Below are positions 2,746-30,421 of a DNA stretch of 44,324 nucleotides, one piece after another (the first letter of the stretch is position 1; every line of letters starts with the position of its first letter). Made by a program: the position numbers and the translations under genes. The notes beneath the pieces are model-generated. The model made no database searches and was not told the DNA's origin. It saw only the letters and a list, made by a program, of their open reading frames with translations. Source of the DNA: a phage; assembly GCA_026204955.1 (NCBI GenBank), contig GCA_026204955.1_4545.1. One strand, given 5' to 3'.

Positions 2746-3345
2746 ATGGCGCAAGGTACAATCACACTAACTAAGGGAAGTAAGACCATCACAGGCGTGG
2801 GAACCGCGTTCCTGAGCGAGATCGGGAAGGTCCGCGTATTTACCCGCATCGACGGCAACGACTACACCGGAAAAATTGCGGCATTCAACTCTAACACCGT
2901 CATCACCCTGGCGGATAACTGGGCCGGACCGACAAAAGCCGGTGCAGCTTATGAGCTAATCGAAGCGCACGACCCGCGATCAAACGAATGGCCCTATTAC
3001 TGGCACATGCAATTGCAAGGCGGCGGAGACGTGCAGTTGGCTTTCCGGTCCGAGGAATTGCAGTTTGGTAACGGTTACGGTCAGAACATCGCGGACGGCC
3101 CGAACGCCGAAACGAAACAGTTCCCCGTGCAATTCGTCGGACTGACTACCGACAAGTGGTGTAACCCTAAGCTGGTTTACAACTTCCTTCGCGGGCACTT
3201 CGTCAAACCGTTTGTCGTCACCGCGCCGGATGGCGAAACAGGTTTATTCGTGGTCGAGCGTTCGAGCTTGTCGTACACTGACAACGGGCACTACACGGCA
3301 ACGGTATCCGCCACCCTTAAGACTGCTATTGGATTCGTAAGATGA
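2746..3345 (+). CDS. minor tail protein (lambda gpM position); N-terminus homologous to tail fibre N-terminus
   Basis: ORF in track from 2707 (ATGA overlap with tape measure stop); second in-frame ATG at 2746 begins MAQGTITLTKGSKTITGVGTAF, which parallels the tail fibre start MAAGTLSVTNNSKAVVGVGTTF. Start choice uncertain (2707 or 2746). Confidence 0.5.
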   Translation: MAQGTITLTKGSKTITGVGTAFLSEIGKVRVFTRIDGNDYTGKIAAFNSNTVITLADNWAGPTKAGAAYELIEAHDPRSNEWPYYWHMQLQGGGDVQLAFRSEELQFGNGYGQNIADGPNAETKQFPVQFVGLTTDKWCNPKLVYNFLRGHFVKPFVVTAPDGETGLFVVERSSLSYTDNGHYTATVSATLKTAIGFVR

Positions 3346-4873: not shown

Positions 4874-5481
4874 CCACCTTTAAACTATACGGCGTCTTAG
4901 GACGTCGTTTCGGTAAAGTGCATAAGCTGGACTGCTTCACGCCGGGCGAGGGTATCACCGGCCTGTGTGTGAAGTTACCAGGCTTACAGGACTTTCTAAT
5001 GTCGGCCCACCTGGACAACATGATGTTCAAAGTGCGCAAGGGCAATCACACTCTGACCGGCTACGATGAGCTGGGCGAGTTCCACGGCAATCGCGTAGTG
5101 ACCATCGCGCCGGTTATGACTGGTGCAAAAAGCGGACTGGGCCAATTGCTGGCTGGTGTAGCAATCGTGGTGGCGTCGTTCTATACCGGCGGGCTTGCGA
5201 CTGCCGCTTTCGGAGCTTCAGCGGCTACAGCGGCCTCTATCGGCGCAGCGACGTTTTCGTTCGGGATGTCGATGGCGCTGGGTGGCGTTATGCAATTGTT
5301 ATCACCGCAACCGAAAGGATTGCAGACACGGCAGGACGTGGATAACAAGGCGTCGTACGCGTTCGGCGGACCAGTGAACACAACCGCGCAAGGCACGGCA
5401 CTTGGTGTATTATGGGGCGAGCGTGAGATCGGCGGCGCTATTATTTCCGCCGGAATCGTAACCGAGGACTTGAACGAATGA
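4864..5481 (+). CDS. tail assembly protein I-like
   Basis: 205 aa, N-terminal ubiquitin-like region then Gly/Ala-rich hydrophobic C-terminus; overlaps K-like and J-like genes as in lambda. Confidence 0.5.
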   Translation: MAMTTFKLYGVLGRRFGKVHKLDCFTPGEGITGLCVKLPGLQDFLMSAHLDNMMFKVRKGNHTLTGYDELGEFHGNRVVTIAPVMTGAKSGLGQLLAGVAIVVASFYTGGLATAAFGASAATAASIGAATFSFGMSMALGGVMQLLSPQPKGLQTRQDVDNKASYAFGGPVNTTAQGTALGVLWGEREIGGAIISAGIVTEDLNE

Positions 5482-13182: not shown

Positions 13183-13704
13183 TTATTTCAGTGCGCTATG
13201 TACCAGTGTTTTTTCCATGTTGCGGAAGTCTTCCGGCGTCATGAGGATTTTGGATCCGTCTTCGCCGGTGAGCACGACCATAGGCTGGACTTCTTGGTCT
13301 GCAATGCCGAAATTGGCGGCTTTTACAGTCTTACCCACCGATGCAGAAGGATTCCACGTCCCCGCGGAGGCGATGGGCCAACCTTTTAGGCTGTCGAATT
13401 GTGCTGCCGTTGTGTCGATCTGAATCTCGTCATGCACGGTCATGTACGACTCGCCCAGCAAGGCCGCATACGCTACCAGGTCGACGATATTGTCTTCCTG
13501 GTGCTTACGGTGCTGGCGCACCAGCTTCAGGCAGATCAAGAAGGTCCAGGCTTCTTGCTCGGTCAGGTCGCGACCGGTAAGCGCGTTAAACACGGCGGCA
13601 ATTTGTTTCGCGCTGCGTTCCTCTTTCGCGTTGTCATAGCCGTTTTCTTTTCCGCGCTGTTCCATAGTGGTGGCGGCGTTTTTGCAGTATTCGTATGCTT
13701 TCAT
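13183..13704 (-). CDS. hypothetical phage protein (helical N-terminal domain, resembles a conserved phage DUF)
   Basis: 173 aa; N-terminal segment ERSAKQIAAVFNALTG...LICLKLVRQHRK...DNIVDLVAYAALLGE resembles a phage domain of unknown function (family name from memory, unverified). AGGA RBS; structured 5' UTR hairpin 13721-13741. Confidence 0.3.
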   Translation of the reverse strand: MKAYEYCKNAATTMEQRGKENGYDNAKEERSAKQIAAVFNALTGRDLTEQEAWTFLICLKLVRQHRKHQEDNIVDLVAYAALLGESYMTVHDEIQIDTTAAQFDSLKGWPIASAGTWNPSASVGKTVKAANFGIADQEVQPMVVLTGEDGSKILMTPEDFRNMEKTLVHSALK

Positions 13705-13757
13705 GATGTGGTCCTTTTTCGGGGAGGCCGTATTGCCTCCCGACGCGTTAACTATAG

Positions 13758-13779
13758 TGCAACCAACCTATTGGTTGCA
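13758..13779. promoter_or_regulatory. perfect palindromic operator-like site TGCAACCAA-ccta-TTGGTTGCA
   Basis: 22-bp palindrome with 9-bp arms overlapping the stop codon of the HAD-like gene and upstream of the 13704 gene. Confidence 0.5.
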
Positions 13780-14238
13780 AGTGAATTTTGCAACGTTTAT
13801 TGCGTAAATTTTCGGGACCAAATCACCACACGCCCGACGAATTGCCGCGATGTTCTTCTCGCAATCTTCAATGATGACCAGTTCCGACACGTCTGCGTAG
13901 CAGACCATTTTGAACACGGCGCACGCCTTAAACTCTGGCGGCGGTGTGTCGTCCAGCATGTGGCGCATAAACAACCGGCCCACCGGGAAGACCTCCAATT
14001 GCTCGGCGGTGGTGCCCCAACATTCTCGCTGCCGGTTTGTCAGATACGCTATCTCGAAGCCTTGCTCTTTGTACATGCGCAGCAGCGGCAGCATATCCAT
14101 GTTCAGATCTTCGCGTACGTGCGCTTTGTGCCACTTTGCCCAAAATGTTGATTTCGTTTTTATACCCGGAACCAGGTCGGCGCGTGCATCACTCGAACCA
14201 TTAATAACGCCATCAAGATCACAAATCAGTAGTTTCAT
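13768..14238 (-). CDS. HAD-superfamily phosphatase-like protein
   Basis: N-terminal MKLLICDLDGVI matches HAD motif I (DxDG[TV]); 156 aa, size typical of phage nucleotidase/phosphatase-type HAD proteins. Confidence 0.5.
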   Translation of the reverse strand: MKLLICDLDGVINGSSDARADLVPGIKTKSTFWAKWHKAHVREDLNMDMLPLLRMYKEQGFEIAYLTNRQRECWGTTAEQLEVFPVGRLFMRHMLDDTPPPEFKACAVFKMVCYADVSELVIIEDCEKNIAAIRRACGDLVPKIYAINVAKFTCNQ

Positions 14239-14468
14239 TTTAAGCTCTCAATAAGGGTGTATCGGGCGCTGCGCGCGGTGAAGGAGTTGCACACGAAATG
14301 GCAACGCTGAGTCATGACAAGCCAACCGGTGAGGTCAAGGCCCAGGATGTATTCGGGGCGAGACGCGCGCACCACACGATTGCGTCGCGGGTCGATGTTA
14401 TAGTCTCTTTGCATTTGGTCTACGACCGCGGGGTCGCGGTCAACGATTAAGATATTCATGTAACTCAC
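14235..14468 (-). CDS. hypothetical protein
   Basis: 77-aa ORF overlapping the neighbouring genes in an operon; no recognisable motif. Confidence 0.3.
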   Translation of the reverse strand: MSYMNILIVDRDPAVVDQMQRDYNIDPRRNRVVRASRPEYILGLDLTGWLVMTQRCHFVCNSFTARSARYTLIESLK

Positions 14469-14925
14469 TCTCGCTCATTATTTCAATTTGTGCGCTGCCG
14501 ATGGGTGGCGCTTCGTCAAAGATTATCAATTGCTGGCACTTGTTATTGCTCGGCCCGACTTCACCGGTGACGGCGTGAATGAATCTAATCCGCCAGTCCA
14601 GAAGAATTATCAGGTTTGCAGTCTTCCTGGCCAACTTCGCCCACTTCGTCGACGTGTCCTGATTCAGTAGCATGACAGTCCGGCGTCCGTGCGCTGCGCA
14701 CTCGACCCACGGCAGCGGATCGGAATACGGCGGATTGCACCATTTCCACCCTTTCAACTCTGCCCAGTCCACATCAAGCGCGCTGTGTTCCGCCGTGAAG
14801 TAACGCGGTAGCAGGTGGTTTGCATCGCTTGCCGCCATATCGTAACGGAATCGGTACTTCCGACGAAGCGGTTTAAATAAAGCTGGCGGCGTGCGCCAGC
14901 TATCTTTTTGCTCATTCTCCGTCAT
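14440..14925 (-). CDS. DNA N6-adenine methyltransferase (phage Dam-type)
   Basis: 161 aa with WRTPP near the N-terminus and the NPPY catalytic motif, as in small phage Dam-family N6-adenine methyltransferases. Confidence 0.6.
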   Translation of the reverse strand: MTENEQKDSWRTPPALFKPLRRKYRFRYDMAASDANHLLPRYFTAEHSALDVDWAELKGWKWCNPPYSDPLPWVECAAHGRRTVMLLNQDTSTKWAKLARKTANLIILLDWRIRFIHAVTGEVGPSNNKCQQLIIFDEAPPIGSAQIEIMSESELHEYLNR

Positions 14926-15370
14926 AGTCTGGATCTATCGCATACAGGGCGGTTTTCTTGCCGCTAGACAGCACACGTAGGACTCGGGACATCTCCTCCC
15001 TACTGAGCGGTCGGCTATCGGAATAGTAGCTGCCGTTTGCACGCCACGCTATATGCACCAGTCCTTTCCGCGGGATCGAAGACTGGCGGCCTTTGGGGCG
15101 CACGTACTCCTCGGCCCGTTTGCAATGCTCGCGCAGACATTCGGCAGTGATGCGGTTTAGCGCAACGCTGGTTGTGTATTCGGTGCGCTGCATAATCCCC
15201 ATCAATTCGAAAAGCAGTTCGAAGCGCTCCTCTAGCTCCTTGCGCATCTTTTCCTCGCCTTCATAGCTAGCCAGGTAGGTATCCGCCAGCGTGTTCGCCC
15301 GTTCGGCTTGCTCGCGGGCTTCGAGGCATTGCGCGGCCCAGTAATTTTTCTCTTCTTGTAAAATTTCCAT
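14912..15370 (-). CDS. hypothetical protein
   Basis: Track ORF to 15430 (TTG); preferred ATG 15370 (MEILQEEKNY) with GGAGA RBS 8 nt upstream; first gene after promoter at 15419-15447. Confidence 0.35.
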   Translation of the reverse strand: MEILQEEKNYWAAQCLEAREQAERANTLADTYLASYEGEEKMRKELEERFELLFELMGIMQRTEYTTSVALNRITAECLREHCKRAEEYVRPKGRQSSIPRKGLVHIAWRANGSYYSDSRPLSREEMSRVLRVLSSGKKTALYAIDPDYDGE

Positions 15371-15389
15371 CGTGTTGTCTCCAGGTATT

Positions 15390-15416
15390 AAAAAAGGGCG
15401 TCCAAACCGGACACCC
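15390..15416 (-). terminator. rho-independent terminator within leftward operon (after HNH-like gene)
   Basis: Reverse strand reads GGGTGTCC-ggttt-GGACGCCC then T6 (one G-U pair); promoter-like element immediately upstream. Confidence 0.5.
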
Positions 15417-15418
15417 TC

Positions 15419-15447
15419 AATATAATGCAACCTATATGATTATGCAA
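15419..15447 (-). promoter_or_regulatory. sigma70-like internal promoter of leftward operon
   Basis: Reverse strand -35 TTGCAT (15447-15442), 17-nt spacer, -10 TATATT (15424-15419); 17-mer identical to the site at 10196-10212. Confidence 0.45.
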
Positions 15448-15452
15448 CCAAT

Positions 15453-15776
15453 TTACGAATAAAAATTTGGGTCGCGCGCAACGTCTACCAGATACAGGTT
15501 GCTCATGCGGTTGCCGTAGTGCCCTGGAGTGCGCTGGCGGCACACAACGGCGAAGCCTGGAGGGATTGTATGGCCCGTCTCAATAATCCACGCCACGCGT
15601 GCACCAGACAGCGTCTTGCCGTTGCATTCGATGCGCGTGCCGCCATCGGCAGTGTTAAGGTTGCCAATTTTGCAGCCGGTGGACTTCAGACGAATGACGC
15701 CGGTTTTGCTGTCGTAGGAGAATAACTGGTTAGTCATTGCAACCGAAAAATCAATGGCTTCGAATGTAGTATTCAT
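15453..15776 (-). CDS. HNH-family endonuclease-like protein (possibly degenerate)
   Basis: 107 aa; segment AWIIETGHTIPPGFAVVCRQRTPGHYGNRMSNLYLV parallels HNH_3-type homing endonuclease cores (...G..VDHIDGN..NNR..NL.LV). Start ATG overlaps the stop of the upstream extension frame. Confidence 0.4.
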   Translation of the reverse strand: MNTTFEAIDFSVAMTNQLFSYDSKTGVIRLKSTGCKIGNLNTADGGTRIECNGKTLSGARVAWIIETGHTIPPGFAVVCRQRTPGHYGNRMSNLYLVDVARDPNFYS

Positions 15777-16009
15777 TTTAAATTTTCCTCATTGACCGCT
15801 ATCGCGAAGCCGCGCGGGGTGAGCGACCGGATTAATTTTGTGCGGGCTGATTTGCCTCCGAGGCGACTATACTGCTTCGAGTACCCTTTTTCAACGAAAA
15901 CAGGTTTCTTCTCTGGCATACGGAAGCCGTTGCCGGTCCATAAGCAGGTCAGCTTCGGATATGAATCGCGGGCGTTGATGTATTCCGGGAAGAGCGGGTG
16001 TACGTCATC

Positions 16010-16483
16010 CTACGGCAGATATCCCCCATACTCCCACGGGTCGAATGAGTGATCCGGCTTGCGCCACTGGGTGGAAAGCACACTGCGCGGATTCTCAATC
16101 ATATATGGCACTTCGAAGAAGTCACCCAGGTAAGCGGCGATCTTCGCGGTGCGCACCGCCTTAAGCTGAAAGGCTGGGTCTTTAGCTCGCTTGCGCGGGA
16201 AAGCGGGCGCACCGCTCACTGCCAGATCCGTGCACGGAGGAAACGCATAGATGATATCTGGCGTACCGAAATCGCCATTCATCGCACGGTCTACAAAGTC
16301 CAGATCGATAAACTCATTGCGATACCGGATTCCGCGACCATAAATCCGGTAGTCAAGGTAAGACCCGTGATCGGCTTCGGAGTAGTTGAAGCAATAACAC
16401 TTATGCCCCATCTCGGCAGCACGCTCAATCATCAAGCCGCTGCCGTCAAACAACGACCAGATTGTCATTTTAGCAATAGTCAT
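16010..16483 (-). CDS. DNA cytosine-C5 methyltransferase-like protein (N-terminal catalytic motifs; interrupted by in-frame TAG)
   Basis: 157-aa ORF with LFDGSG (motif I-like), FPPC (motif IV PC-like) and ENP (motif VI-like) at spacings typical of C5-methyltransferases. ORF ends at TAG 16012-16010 but the same frame stays open for 78 more codons to TGA 15775-15773. Confidence 0.4.
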   Translation of the reverse strand: MTIAKMTIWSLFDGSGLMIERAAEMGHKCYCFNYSEADHGSYLDYRIYGRGIRYRNEFIDLDFVDRAMNGDFGTPDIIYAFPPCTDLAVSGAPAFPRKRAKDPAFQLKAVRTAKIAAYLGDFFEVPYMIENPRSVLSTQWRKPDHSFDPWEYGGYLP

Positions 16484-17904
16484 TTGCGCGCCTTTTTAGC
16501 TTTCATGTACTCCATCAAGTCGTCTTGAATATCTCGCTTGCTGTCGCGACGCTCGGCGACCAATTCGTCCAGTGTCCCGCGCGCCTGGATAATGTAGACG
16601 AATACCGGTCGAGGGTGTCCGGCCTGCATCTGGCGAACCGGCCCGATACGTTCAACGATCTGCGAAAAGTGCTCAAAGTTCCAGGTATCGGAGAAGATTG
16701 CCAGGTGATGACCGCCGTCCTGCAAGTTAAGGCCGTGGCCTGCCGATGCCGGGTGTGCAAACATGATGGGGATCTCGCCCCTGTTCCACGCTTCCATATC
16801 CTTATTGCCCTGCTTACCCTTACCCAACGCGACGCCGTGCGGAAATTTCTTCTTAAGACGTGCCAGGTCATGCTTATACTGATACGCAACGAGCAACGGC
16901 GCGCCGTTCAACTCCTCCACGATACTTTCCAGCGCGTCCAGCTTCGCGTCGTGGATCTTCACCCACTCGTCGGTCCGTTCGCCGTCTTCGTCCACCTTAT
17001 ACACAGCGCCGGAAGCAAGCTGAAGGCACTTAATTGTCTTCGATGCCGCGTTCGCCGCTTCCACCGTTCCGCTTTCCAGTTCGGCAAATAGCTCGCTTTC
17101 AAACTGGTCGTAAATCTTGCGGGCTTTCTTCGGCAGGTCCACAACAACAGGCGTATAGATTGGCTTGTCGCACCCGAAGTATTCAGCCGCGTCAACGGTG
17201 AGGGATACATCTGACAGACGTTGTTGTATCTCTTTCTCGGAGTTCTTTAGCGGAGCGTGCTGCATAGTGAAGCTGCCAGGCTTAACAGGCTTGCTAATGA
17301 ACCAGCGGTCGGTAAATGCCTTATAGCTACTGCCGAGGCGTTCGCCACCGTCGACAAACCACGTCTGACCCCATAAGTCTTTCAGCCCGTTGGGTGCGGG
17401 TGTGCCGGTAAGGTTAATCCAGCGCTTGACGTGTTTATGTGCAATCGCTGCCATTGCGCGGGCGCGCTTGCTCCCCTGCTTGCTACGATATCCTTTCAGC
17501 TTAGTCGATTCATCGGCAACAACGACCGTAAAGGGCCACGCATCGCCGTAATAGTCGACCAGCCACTCAACAACATCGTAGTTAACACAAACCACGTTAG
17601 CGTCGCTCTCCAGCGCGGCTATGCGGTCCTTCTCTGGTCCAGTGCCGTCTACGACCAGCAGGGATGAGAACCGCCATTTCTCCTGTTCCGGGGGCCATGT
17701 ACCCGACGCAACACGCAGCGGGGCCAGCACCAGTACGCGGTCCTCATGATGGGACAGGACGCCAGTCTGGAACATTTTATTCAGCGCCCACATTGTCGCG
17801 CCGGTTTTACCGGATCCCATTGTCGCCCAGATATTACATCGCTTATGCTTGAGGATGAACGAGGTTATCAACTTCTGATATTCGCGGCGTCGGAATCGTG
17901 CCAT
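16480..17904 (-). CDS. SNF2/DEAD-like superfamily-2 helicase
   Basis: Track ORF to 17994; preferred ATG 17904. Walker A-like MGSGKTG and DExx-like VVADESTKLKG; about 474 aa; adjacent to VRR-NUC and DNA polymerase genes. Confidence 0.65.
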   Translation of the reverse strand: MARFRRREYQKLITSFILKHKRCNIWATMGSGKTGATMWALNKMFQTGVLSHHEDRVLVLAPLRVASGTWPPEQEKWRFSSLLVVDGTGPEKDRIAALESDANVVCVNYDVVEWLVDYYGDAWPFTVVVADESTKLKGYRSKQGSKRARAMAAIAHKHVKRWINLTGTPAPNGLKDLWGQTWFVDGGERLGSSYKAFTDRWFISKPVKPGSFTMQHAPLKNSEKEIQQRLSDVSLTVDAAEYFGCDKPIYTPVVVDLPKKARKIYDQFESELFAELESGTVEAANAASKTIKCLQLASGAVYKVDEDGERTDEWVKIHDAKLDALESIVEELNGAPLLVAYQYKHDLARLKKKFPHGVALGKGKQGNKDMEAWNRGEIPIMFAHPASAGHGLNLQDGGHHLAIFSDTWNFEHFSQIVERIGPVRQMQAGHPRPVFVYIIQARGTLDELVAERRDSKRDIQDDLMEYMKAKKARK

Positions 17905-18667: not shown

Positions 18668-20959
18668 TTACTTCCTATACCGGTACATAATGTCGCCTTC
18701 TGCAGCGAGTGGGAACCCTTTCGCCCATACAGGCAGGTCGCACATCAGCGCACAAAGCTCCTCGGTAGTGTAGTCGTCGGTGTCCGGCACTTCGGTGATC
18801 AATTCATCGTGCACTGACAGGACGATTTCATATCCGGCAGCTTCAACGCCAGGCATGGACCACGCGAGAATATCGCGGCACAACGCCTGTACGATGTTCT
18901 CCGTCAGTTTGCCGCCGTAGGTATACTGGAAGCCCCACTGGCGCGTCGTCTGATTCTCGCCCTGATATTTAATGCGTGTGCTGGTGCGCTTCTTGCCGGT
19001 GTCTTCGTCAATCTCGGTAGTGACAGACAGCGCGATGCCGGGGTAGCTCATGATGCGCCCCGACGGCAACTCAATTTTCAACCACCACCCCGCGGCGTCC
19101 GGGTCGTCGCGCTCCTCGTCGAAGGTTGGGTCGTGCTTCGCCTTCGTACGGACAATCTTGAGCGCTTTTCTACCGTCCGGGCGAACGTTCGCGCCAGCCC
19201 AGTATGCTTTGCCCGGATTGCGGATTGCACACAACACCGCGTCCTCAAGCTCGGCCCAAAAGGCTACCGTCTTCGGGTGCGCCTCACGCCACATACGTTT
19301 GATTGCGTCACAAGTAAGCCATACGTTTTTCGGCAGTATGTATGTTGGGCGCTCGTCTTTCTTACCTGGCTTCGGCGGGCGTTTCGCTTCGTTAATGCGG
19401 GCGTACTCATAGCCGCGTTTCGCCGCCGCCCAAATGTGATCCGGGAACGTGCCTTTCATCACGTCCGCCATAGTGTAAAGGTCGAGGCCCAGGTTTTTAG
19501 CGAACTGCAAGAACGCCGCGACTCCGCCACCATAGCCCAGCCCCAATTCGCACGCCTTACCAATCTGGCGTAAGTCCTTGCGGTTGGCTTTAATGTAGTC
19601 CGGGTCCAGGCCGAACATCTTACCGGCAGTCTCGCAATAGATATCGCGACCGGCCTTAAAGACCATTAACGCTGTTTTCTCGCCAGCGATCCAGGCAAGG
19701 CCGCGCCCTTCCACGTTGGAGTAGTCCGCTACGACAAACTTCTTGCCCTTCGCCGGAATAATGCACCCGCGAACGGTCGAGGCCGTTAGCTTCGATATGT
19801 CATACGCCCAGTGTGCGGTCCCGCGTAACAGGGAGTTGATGCCGTTGGTGAGCATGTGCGACCGGACCCAAAACGAGACGTCGCTTTCACCCTCGCGGCG
19901 TTTAATCTTCCCTTCGTGGTCGTCGCTGTACTCGCCACGCGCCAGGTTTTGAGGTTGAAAGCCTTTACCGGCCCAGCGTAGTGTGCGCTTTGCCCCACCA
20001 TACTGAAGACAACCACGGCGGCGACCATCGGCGGACAGGCCATTGACAAGCGGATTGTATTTAGTAGATGCCGTTGATGACGCACCGAGGCGCATTTCGA
20101 TAAGCGCTTTGCCTTCGTCGGGGAAATCCGGGTCTTCAAGCAGGTCGTTAAGTGTGGATTTCTGCGCGTTGTGGATCGTGAACGCCGGGGCGATATCACG
20201 CAGGATTGGCAGGAAGTCATTGCCGGTCAGCTTACCGCCAAATCGCTCCCAGGCTTCTTCCTTCAATTCTTCCTTATGCGCCTGCACCGCTTTGATCGCG
20301 GCGTTCGCCAGGTCAACGTCCACATAGAAGCCGCGGTCGTTGATCAACTGGTCAATAAGCAGGATTTCATCTTCCTTCGGAGTATTACCCCAGTCCGGTA
20401 TGCGCCAGTAGACTTCACGCATTGCGATAATATCCAGCGCGGCATAGCGCAGAAATTTGGCCCACTCTTCTGGGTGAGTCTCGCGAGTGTAGCGGCGGAT
20501 TTTGTAGGTCTTAGGGGTAGGCTTACAGAATCGTTTAATCAGCGCCTTGCCTGCCTTATCCTTCGCGTGCTCTGCGTCAACGCCCAGCACCTGGCACTGC
20601 ATATCGAGGCTGCCGGGCAGAGCGTGGCGAAAGGCCATAATCATGGTGTCTTCGATCTGGCTTACCGGCAGGTCAATACCCCACTTCTCGCGAATAACCA
20701 GGCGGTCAAACAGGAGGCCGTTAGCCATCACTATTTTTGCTTTCTTGCGGGAAACATGGCGGAGCGCCTTGCGCAGTTCACGCGGCATTGTGGGGGATTC
20801 AGTGCAATCCCATGTCTGCACGCGGCCCTCGTCGATGGCGTATGTGCAAATCATAATCTCGGTGGTTGGGTGCTCTGCGTAGGCGTACGCCCCAACTTTC
20901 TTCGGGTCCACCCCGCTAAATGTCTCGGTGTCGAGAAACAGGCGTTCGAAGTCTTTCAT
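18668..20959 (-). CDS. DNA polymerase, family A (with 3'-5' exonuclease domain)
   Basis: 763 aa; N-terminal FLDTETFS (Exo I D-x-E); motif A DYSNVEGRGLAWIAGE, motif B RQIGKACELGLGYGGG, motif C VHDE. Confidence 0.85.
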   Translation of the reverse strand: MKDFERLFLDTETFSGVDPKKVGAYAYAEHPTTEIMICTYAIDEGRVQTWDCTESPTMPRELRKALRHVSRKKAKIVMANGLLFDRLVIREKWGIDLPVSQIEDTMIMAFRHALPGSLDMQCQVLGVDAEHAKDKAGKALIKRFCKPTPKTYKIRRYTRETHPEEWAKFLRYAALDIIAMREVYWRIPDWGNTPKEDEILLIDQLINDRGFYVDVDLANAAIKAVQAHKEELKEEAWERFGGKLTGNDFLPILRDIAPAFTIHNAQKSTLNDLLEDPDFPDEGKALIEMRLGASSTASTKYNPLVNGLSADGRRRGCLQYGGAKRTLRWAGKGFQPQNLARGEYSDDHEGKIKRREGESDVSFWVRSHMLTNGINSLLRGTAHWAYDISKLTASTVRGCIIPAKGKKFVVADYSNVEGRGLAWIAGEKTALMVFKAGRDIYCETAGKMFGLDPDYIKANRKDLRQIGKACELGLGYGGGVAAFLQFAKNLGLDLYTMADVMKGTFPDHIWAAAKRGYEYARINEAKRPPKPGKKDERPTYILPKNVWLTCDAIKRMWREAHPKTVAFWAELEDAVLCAIRNPGKAYWAGANVRPDGRKALKIVRTKAKHDPTFDEERDDPDAAGWWLKIELPSGRIMSYPGIALSVTTEIDEDTGKKRTSTRIKYQGENQTTRQWGFQYTYGGKLTENIVQALCRDILAWSMPGVEAAGYEIVLSVHDELITEVPDTDDYTTEELCALMCDLPVWAKGFPLAAEGDIMYRYRK

Positions 20960-30130: not shown

Positions 30131-30421
30131 ATGGATAAGCTAAACGAGTGGTTATTTGCCCTCGCATGTCTGGCTGGCGGCTTCGTAGGCGCACGCATTC
30201 ATGGCGAGGCTACGAAAGGGCCGCTAAACTTCGTTTTATATATCGTAGTTGGCTTCCTGTGTGCCATATTTGGTGCGCCAGCTATTGCCGAGTGGGCTGG
30301 CTTATCGGGCGAGCGCACTGTCGCCGGTTTGGGCTTCGTAACTGCAATCTTCTGGATGCCAATAGCCGCCCGGATCAGGGAGACTATTGAGTCGTTCCGA
30401 CTTCCGGGGGGCGCAAAATGA
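30131..30421 (+). CDS. holin-like membrane protein
   Basis: 96 aa, three predicted transmembrane segments, charged C-terminus; immediately upstream of endolysin. Confidence 0.45.
   Translation: MDKLNEWLFALACLAGGFVGARIHGEATKGPLNFVLYIVVGFLCAIFGAPAIAEWAGLSGERTVAGLGFVTAIFWMPIAARIRETIESFRLPGGAK

Follow-up and report, generated by a model that had tools for sequence, protein, structure and literature searches.

A premature amber codon in the Dcm-like C5-methyltransferase gene of a Dhillonvirus: a probable, very recent null mutation

Phage K42, whose genome shares 95.4% identity with that of KarlJaspers Bas06, carries a 711-bp gene for a "Dcm-like C5 cytosine methyltransferase", which has been studied as the trigger of retron Ec86 (Eco1) (bioRxiv 10.1101/2023.08.16.553469). 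This retron is a documented example of a sensor of the enzyme, and methylation of its msDNA by the phage Dcm activates it. Expression of K42 Dcm raises the 5-methylcytosine content of Ec86 msDNA, as determined by LC-MS, mutation of the CCTGG motif of the msDNA abolishes the defence, and a C82A/E128A/K175A/K176A mutant of the enzyme is inert (bioRxiv 10.1101/2023.08.16.553469). All the escaper phages described (4/4) disrupt or probably silence the dcm-like gene, and one of them does so by a 1-bp deletion that leads to a premature stop (bioRxiv 10.1101/2023.08.16.553469).

A related gene is found in the DNA analysed here, referred to as the window (the whole stretch of 44,324 nucleotides), where the reading frame is interrupted by a TAG codon. 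When the frame is read through this codon, the reconstructed protein is 54% identical over its full length (E 8e-86) to the Dcm-like protein of KarlJaspers Bas06 (236 aa). The two genes share their length (711 bp, 236 aa), the catalytic Cys, the Glu of ENP and the first Lys of the KK pair, and the predicted structure is in both cases closest to DNMT3A. Residues C82, E128, K175 and K176 of K42 align with C84, E130, K177 and L178 of the window protein; C84, E130 and K177 are invariant in an alignment of 46 family sequences, whereas the second lysine is replaced by Leu178. Loss-of-function alleles of the K42 gene, including a premature stop, are known from retron escapers; the window allele is an amber substitution, not a deletion or frameshift. 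K42 and KarlJaspers are also members of Hanrivervirus (Drexlerviridae) rather than Dhillonvirus and have a different gene neighbourhood, whereas the window gene lies between a helicase gene and an HNH gene with ATGA coupling.

The family and its place among C5-methyltransferases

The gene is the Dhillonvirus copy of a small (236-aa) phage Dcm-like C5-methyltransferase, which belongs to a known and experimentally characterised family. The reconstructed protein matches phrog_757 ("DNA methyltransferase") in PHROGs over residues 2-234 (E 7.4e-84). A protein search returned 2880 homologues, and 115 of the 120 listed are 219-259 aa long; a tblastn search detected the family in 1511 records, of phages of Escherichia, Klebsiella, Salmonella and further hosts.

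Canonical C5 DNA methyltransferases of PF00145, such as M.HhaI, E. coli Dcm and the catalytic domain of DNMT3A/3B, have about 330-470 aa, compared with 236 aa here. The target-recognition region is minimal in the phage protein and its sequence falls below the Pfam threshold. Indeed, the full-length reconstructed protein has no match to PF00145, and the N-terminal 157 aa reach 10.7 bits (E 0.36, profile positions 1-83), compared with a curated gathering threshold of 22 bits. Homology to PF00145 appears to be transitive, through other members of the family, because 10 of the 46 aligned members match this profile at E<=0.01 (best 1.3e-6). NCBIfam gave no match, and PDB sequence searches returned nothing meaningful for the methyltransferase protein; its family was assigned from PHROGs, a fold search and the literature. 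The label "C5-methyltransferase-like", which the gene had received in a first-pass annotation of the same DNA, is therefore right, and it rests on the fold and on the characterised homologue rather than on a Pfam match. The catalytic-domain fold of C5-methyltransferases is present together with motifs I (FxGxG), IV (PC) and VI (ENx), and the frame of a complete enzyme is broken by TAG at codon 158 of 236.

When the 59 annotated genes of Gluttony_ev152 are mapped on the window, they show it to be a complete Dhillonvirus genome, about 44 kb long and collinear with that of this relative. The methyltransferase region matches 160 phage records, almost all of them Escherichia phages of the genus Dhillonvirus, and the best regional match is again Gluttony_ev152 (97.4% over 1.4 kb). 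Three genes of this relative, gp06 (80 aa), gp25 (182 aa) and gp39 (254 aa), are without a blastn counterpart in the window, and its tail-fibre gene gp58 aligns only over the first ~965 nt or so; these differences are the usual mosaicism of Dhillonvirus. A further detail of the genome concerns a 74-aa ORF at 14235-14458 (minus strand), placed between a Dam-like methyltransferase gene (14440-14925) and a 156-aa phosphatase-like gene (13768-14238). By position and size alone it resembles Ksap1, a protein of Dhillonvirus that reportedly triggers the KpAvs2 defence (PMC11564622).

Layout of the interrupted gene

The features of the locus, all on the minus strand and in window coordinates, are the following.

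16480..17904, minus: SNF2/DEAD-like helicase gene, 474 aa, upstream; the orthologous product matches PF00176
15773..16483, minus: complete ancestral methyltransferase gene, 711 nt, 236 codons plus stop, with an ATGA overlap at both ends
16010..16483, minus: truncated methyltransferase ORF, 157 codons plus TAG, the N-terminal two thirds of the Dcm-like C5-methyltransferase
16010..16012, minus: premature amber codon TAG, codon 158; GAG, GAA or GAT in orthologues
15773..16009, minus: cut-off C-terminal third, 78 codons plus TGA, now untranslated
15453..15776, minus: HNH endonuclease-like gene, 107 aa, downstream (phrog_99, E 5e-15)
15394..15418, minus: terminator-like hairpin with an 11-pair stem and a T-run, by consensus match only

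Translation and ORF listing of the strand from 16483 to 15773 give an ATG, 157 sense codons in all, TAG at 16012-16010, 78 further sense codons and TGA at 15775-15773. The first-pass annotation had described an ORF that stops after 157 aa and a frame that stays open for 78 codons up to an ATGA shared with the HNH-like gene, and retranslation agrees with it exactly. It had also assigned motifs I, IV and VI to the truncated ORF, and all three are located before the stop: FDGSG of motif I at residues 12-16, PPC of motif IV at 82-84 and ENP of motif VI at 130-132. The catalytic residues Cys84 (PPC) and Glu130 (ENP) are thus kept in the 157-aa ORF. The segment beyond the stop (15773..16009) holds the invariant K177, the GNG region and the invariant C-terminal helix region GGK...RSLTPRG.

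At the downstream junction, the methyltransferase TGA (15775-15773) overlaps the ATG of the HNH gene (15776-15774) as ATGA, and at the upstream junction the helicase TGA (16482-16480) overlaps the methyltransferase ATG (16483-16481) in the same way. The view that this coupling arrangement is used elsewhere in the genome was borne out by gene-end coordinates, which give 4-nt overlaps at five other junctions (14235-14238, 20956-20959, 30418-30421, 3342-3345 and 5478-5481). Since ATGA overlaps occur at both junctions and a hairpin follows the HNH stop, the helicase, methyltransferase and HNH genes look, from the sequence, like one translationally coupled block, whose end is probably marked by the hairpin. 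The HNH gene has a GAGG of its own about 10 nt before its ATG.

The hairpin sits 35 nt past the HNH stop. The intergenic stretch between them (15420-15452, minus strand) contains a near-repeat, GGTTGCATAAT ... GGTTGCATTAT, and reads TTGCAT-17 nt-TATATT, which is promoter-like. A consensus promoter scan of the block gave 3 matches, compared with 2.3 expected by chance, and this element is not among them.

Origin of the amber codon

The whole of the evidence very probably describes a Dcm-like C5-methyltransferase gene with a very recent single-base GAG-to-TAG null mutation. Five annotated relatives (Gluttony_ev152 YP_010742434, UDS3lw XLZ12825, EK99P-1 gp32, Oekolampad Bas18 and SO-1 gp32) carry the gene as an unbroken CDS, with a length of either 711 nt (236 aa) or 696 nt (231 aa, with 15 nt absent at the 5' end), and their codon 158 is GAG in four and GAT in SO-1. 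More generally, codon 158 is Glu or Asp (GAG, GAA or GAT) in 22 of the 22 intact orthologous loci read, namely 19 from GenBank and IMG/VR and three ENA metagenome contigs, the last three with GAG. The alignment with orthologues that the first-pass annotation had proposed thus returns a sense codon throughout, and its estimate of about 236 codons for the original gene is matched by orthologues of 236 aa, or of 231 aa where the 15-nt N-terminal segment is missing. These intact Dhillonvirus orthologues are 96-99.4% identical to the window gene at the nucleotide level and have the same synteny, but their products have the complete length of 231 or 236 aa, whereas the window copy ends at codon 158.

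Apart from the stop, the window protein is 100% identical to the proteins of Gluttony_ev152 and UDS3lw. The Gluttony_ev152 gene differs from the window gene at 4 of 711 nt (99.4% identity), of which three are synonymous and the fourth is a G>T on the coding strand at window position 16012 (C>A on the plus strand), which changes GAG (Glu158) to TAG. No exact match to the TAG allele was found in IMG/VR, JGI metagenomes or GTDB genomes.

In the relatives, strong purifying selection acts on the 78 codons that follow this position. Among 17 distinct orthologues, dN/dS by the Nei-Gojobori method comes to 0.037 over codons 6-157 and to 0.041 over codons 159-236. Rather than ending at this position with an unconserved stretch beyond it, which is the outcome that would have spoken against the first-pass reading, the orthologues continue under this constraint. 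The open downstream frame is not a product of chance, as it corresponds to the conserved C-terminal part of the 236-aa protein that relatives still encode in full. In the window itself, this part differs from near relatives almost solely at synonymous sites; compared with the close relative L002, whose protein is identical apart from the stop, there are 13 synonymous and no non-synonymous differences. Because the downstream codons show no decay here, the nonsense mutation is very recent. Of the three explanations originally offered for the TAG, a recent nonsense mutation is best supported, with a single G>T, three other differences that are all synonymous and no downstream decay.

A second explanation is a sequencing or assembly error, in which the true phage has GAG and the T is artefactual. 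It is consistent with a single-base difference within an otherwise perfectly conserved protein and with an allele private to this genome. However, a Logan contig of 3300 bp (SRR21743677), produced by a different assembler, is 100% identical to window 13667-16966 with the TAG included, which counts as independent data only if the window was not assembled from SRR21743677. The exact 157-aa product is also on record in a protein collection, encoded on Logan contig SRR21743677_218. Look-ups of exact matches to the helicase and to a neighbouring 152-aa product yielded either no record or this Logan contig only. The same base from a second assembler rules out an assembly artefact, as distinct from one at the level of the reads. 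Substitution errors are rare at consensus depth. Moreover, the rest of the genome is without frameshift or nonsense relative to the closest annotated relative: among the 59 reference genes, only the methyltransferase aligns full-length and gapless and yet has a mid-gene stop, and no other mid-gene stop or frameshift was found among the genes aligning in this way to Gluttony_ev152. The assembly looks clean because no other full-length gapless gene is broken. Real nonsense alleles of like kind also exist in deposited isolates, for example AV129. With the same base in the Logan assembly and no other gene broken, an error is regarded as unlikely; its conceivable forms are a wrong base at consensus level or a minority variant promoted to consensus.

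A third explanation is programmed recoding, in which a suppressor tRNA or a reassigned stop codon would allow synthesis of the complete enzyme, perhaps as a switch that is regulated or depends on the host. Readthrough of this kind would fit the downstream frame, which has stayed open and undamaged up to its ATGA overlap, but a very recent mutation would leave this frame intact anyway. Laboratory hosts with supE or supF would partly suppress an amber codon, and such suppression is possibly an incidental phenotype. Against a programmed feature, no tRNA or tmRNA gene was found in the window, and TAG also serves as the terminator of at least three further genes, which end where their orthologues do (window 13768, 18385 and 4130). 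A stop at codon 158 is absent from all 22 intact orthologous loci, and the TAG allele from the metagenome and genome collections named above. Amber suppression, the remaining option of the first-pass annotation, is accordingly unsupported as a programmed feature, and recoding appears extremely improbable.

A split enzyme was also considered, in which translation would reinitiate at the in-frame ATG of codon 189 (ORF 15919-15773, 48 aa). This reading was rejected because the ATG lacks an upstream Shine-Dalgarno sequence and no orthologue is so arranged.

Predicted consequences and loss of the gene in Dhillonviruses

Under the preferred account of a very recent nonsense mutation, the single G>T at 16012 would have turned GAG (Glu158) into TAG, and in a non-suppressor host translation would end after 157 residues. 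The resulting product would keep AdoMet motif I, the catalytic Cys84 and Glu130. The truncation removes K177, the counterpart of the substrate-binding lysine K175 of the K42/Bas06 enzyme, as well as the last strand of the predicted structure (residues 179-184) and its three C-terminal helices. Moreover, of the 46 alignment columns that are invariant, 19 fall beyond residue 158, including GGK...RSLTPRG. Because K177, the last beta-strand, the C-terminal helices and these 19 invariant positions are lost, the 157-aa fragment is predicted to be inactive, and the allele effectively null; the fragment is probably also unstable.

An inactive enzyme would place no phage-made 5-methylcytosine on the phage DNA. 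The phage would then lose its self-protection against Dcm-site (EcoRII-type) restriction and would become insensitive to defences that sense the enzyme, such as retron Ec86/Eco1. The HNH gene might also be less strongly coupled in translation, as the ribosomes translating upstream of it would be lost. The CCWGG specificity proposed for the Dhillonvirus enzyme is carried over, by analogy, from the 54%-identical enzyme. CCWGG (Dcm/EcoRII site) occurs 141 times in the genome, compared with 68.9 +/- 8.5 in dinucleotide-preserving shuffles, none of which reaches 141. The phage thus does not avoid this site, which is about 2-fold over-represented, and this fits habitual protective methylation. If the enzyme has Dcm specificity, many CCWGG sites would be unmodified on dcm-minus hosts.

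For annotation, the locus is to be described as a disrupted (amber) allele of a Dcm-like C5-methyltransferase rather than as a 157-aa methyltransferase followed by an empty gap. The phage probably lacks, as a natural knockout, an enzyme that shields phage DNA from restriction at Dcm sites and yet betrays the phage to retron Ec86. Together with the near-isogenic Gluttony_ev152, in which the gene is intact and 99.4% identical, it would make a convenient pair for testing the trade-off between restriction and retron defence in Dhillonviruses. The allele is private and very recent; otherwise it is an ordinary point mutation in an already known gene family, not a novel one.

The same gene is independently inactivated in other Dhillonviruses (AV129, Bas84, Opt212, Teewinot and PS2), at different sites and by different mechanisms, which include an amber codon at E130, a 56-nt deletion and large in-frame deletions. 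The change in AV129 is likewise GAG>TAG. The frameshifting 56-nt deletion is found in JohannBuxtorf Bas84, whereas Opt212, Teewinot and a Logan contig (P0136, P0137 and P0148) have in common an in-frame deletion that leaves 61-66 aa. PS2 retains 45% of the gene, and three Logan proteins (P0004, P0009 and P0097) have internal in-frame deletions. Visibly damaged copies amount to about 4-6%, as given by 6 of 155 Dhillonvirus records and by a 24-member fragment cluster compared with a 387-member intact cluster. Judging from these sequences, the gene appears dispensable and repeatedly lost in Dhillonvirus, with the remaining copies under strong purifying selection. Such a distribution is in keeping with an accessory gene that mostly benefits the phage and now and then has a cost. 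The documented cost of an active enzyme is that of K42, namely activation of Ec86, and by analogy it may apply here.

A further question is why the mutation became fixed. It is a tentative possibility that the amber was selected, in nature or in the laboratory, because hosts sense an active methyltransferase; this would refine and not replace the account of a nonsense mutation. In its favour, independent loss-of-function alleles recur, the Logan copies included. However, about 95% of Dhillonvirus records (149 of 155) keep a full-length copy (>=80% coverage), and selection on the gene is strongly purifying. The data are explained just as well by a lone mutation, neutral or slightly deleterious, that happened to be captured in one isolate. 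The more specific proposal, in which the amber is one case of recurrent selected loss driven by defences that use the activity of the enzyme as a signal of infection, is rather doubtful. If true, the gene would cycle between retention for anti-restriction and loss for escape from the retron, and the candidate drivers would be retron Eco1/Ec86, which is native to E. coli B/BL21, or another sensor. In the literature, no report was found that tests retron Eco1 against Dhillonviruses with and without the methyltransferase gene.

McrBC was also considered as a selective agent and was rejected on general knowledge, on the premise that the window enzyme would have a Dcm-type target. The reason is that the Dcm-type product C(m5C)WGG does not constitute an R(m5C) site and that K-12 is itself both Dcm-positive and McrBC-positive.

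Some records of the gene deserve a brief description. In AV129 (OR352959.1, locus 393-1088), the amber falls on the catalytic Glu of ENP (YMI*NP), and the record annotates the broken gene as two hypothetical proteins. The deletion shared by Opt212, Teewinot and the Logan contig joins FDGSG directly to FRMPEKK, and its junction lies between the near-identical 11-mers GGCAGCGGCTT and GGCAACGGCTT, which suggests a microhomology-mediated event. Finally, the record of Escherichia phage P-GXEC-L2P5 (PQ843332.1) has 88,607 bp, about twice the genome size of the genus, and its methyltransferase gene contains internal duplications seen as three overlapping blast pieces; these oddities have the look of a faulty assembly or of a concatemer, not of real biology.
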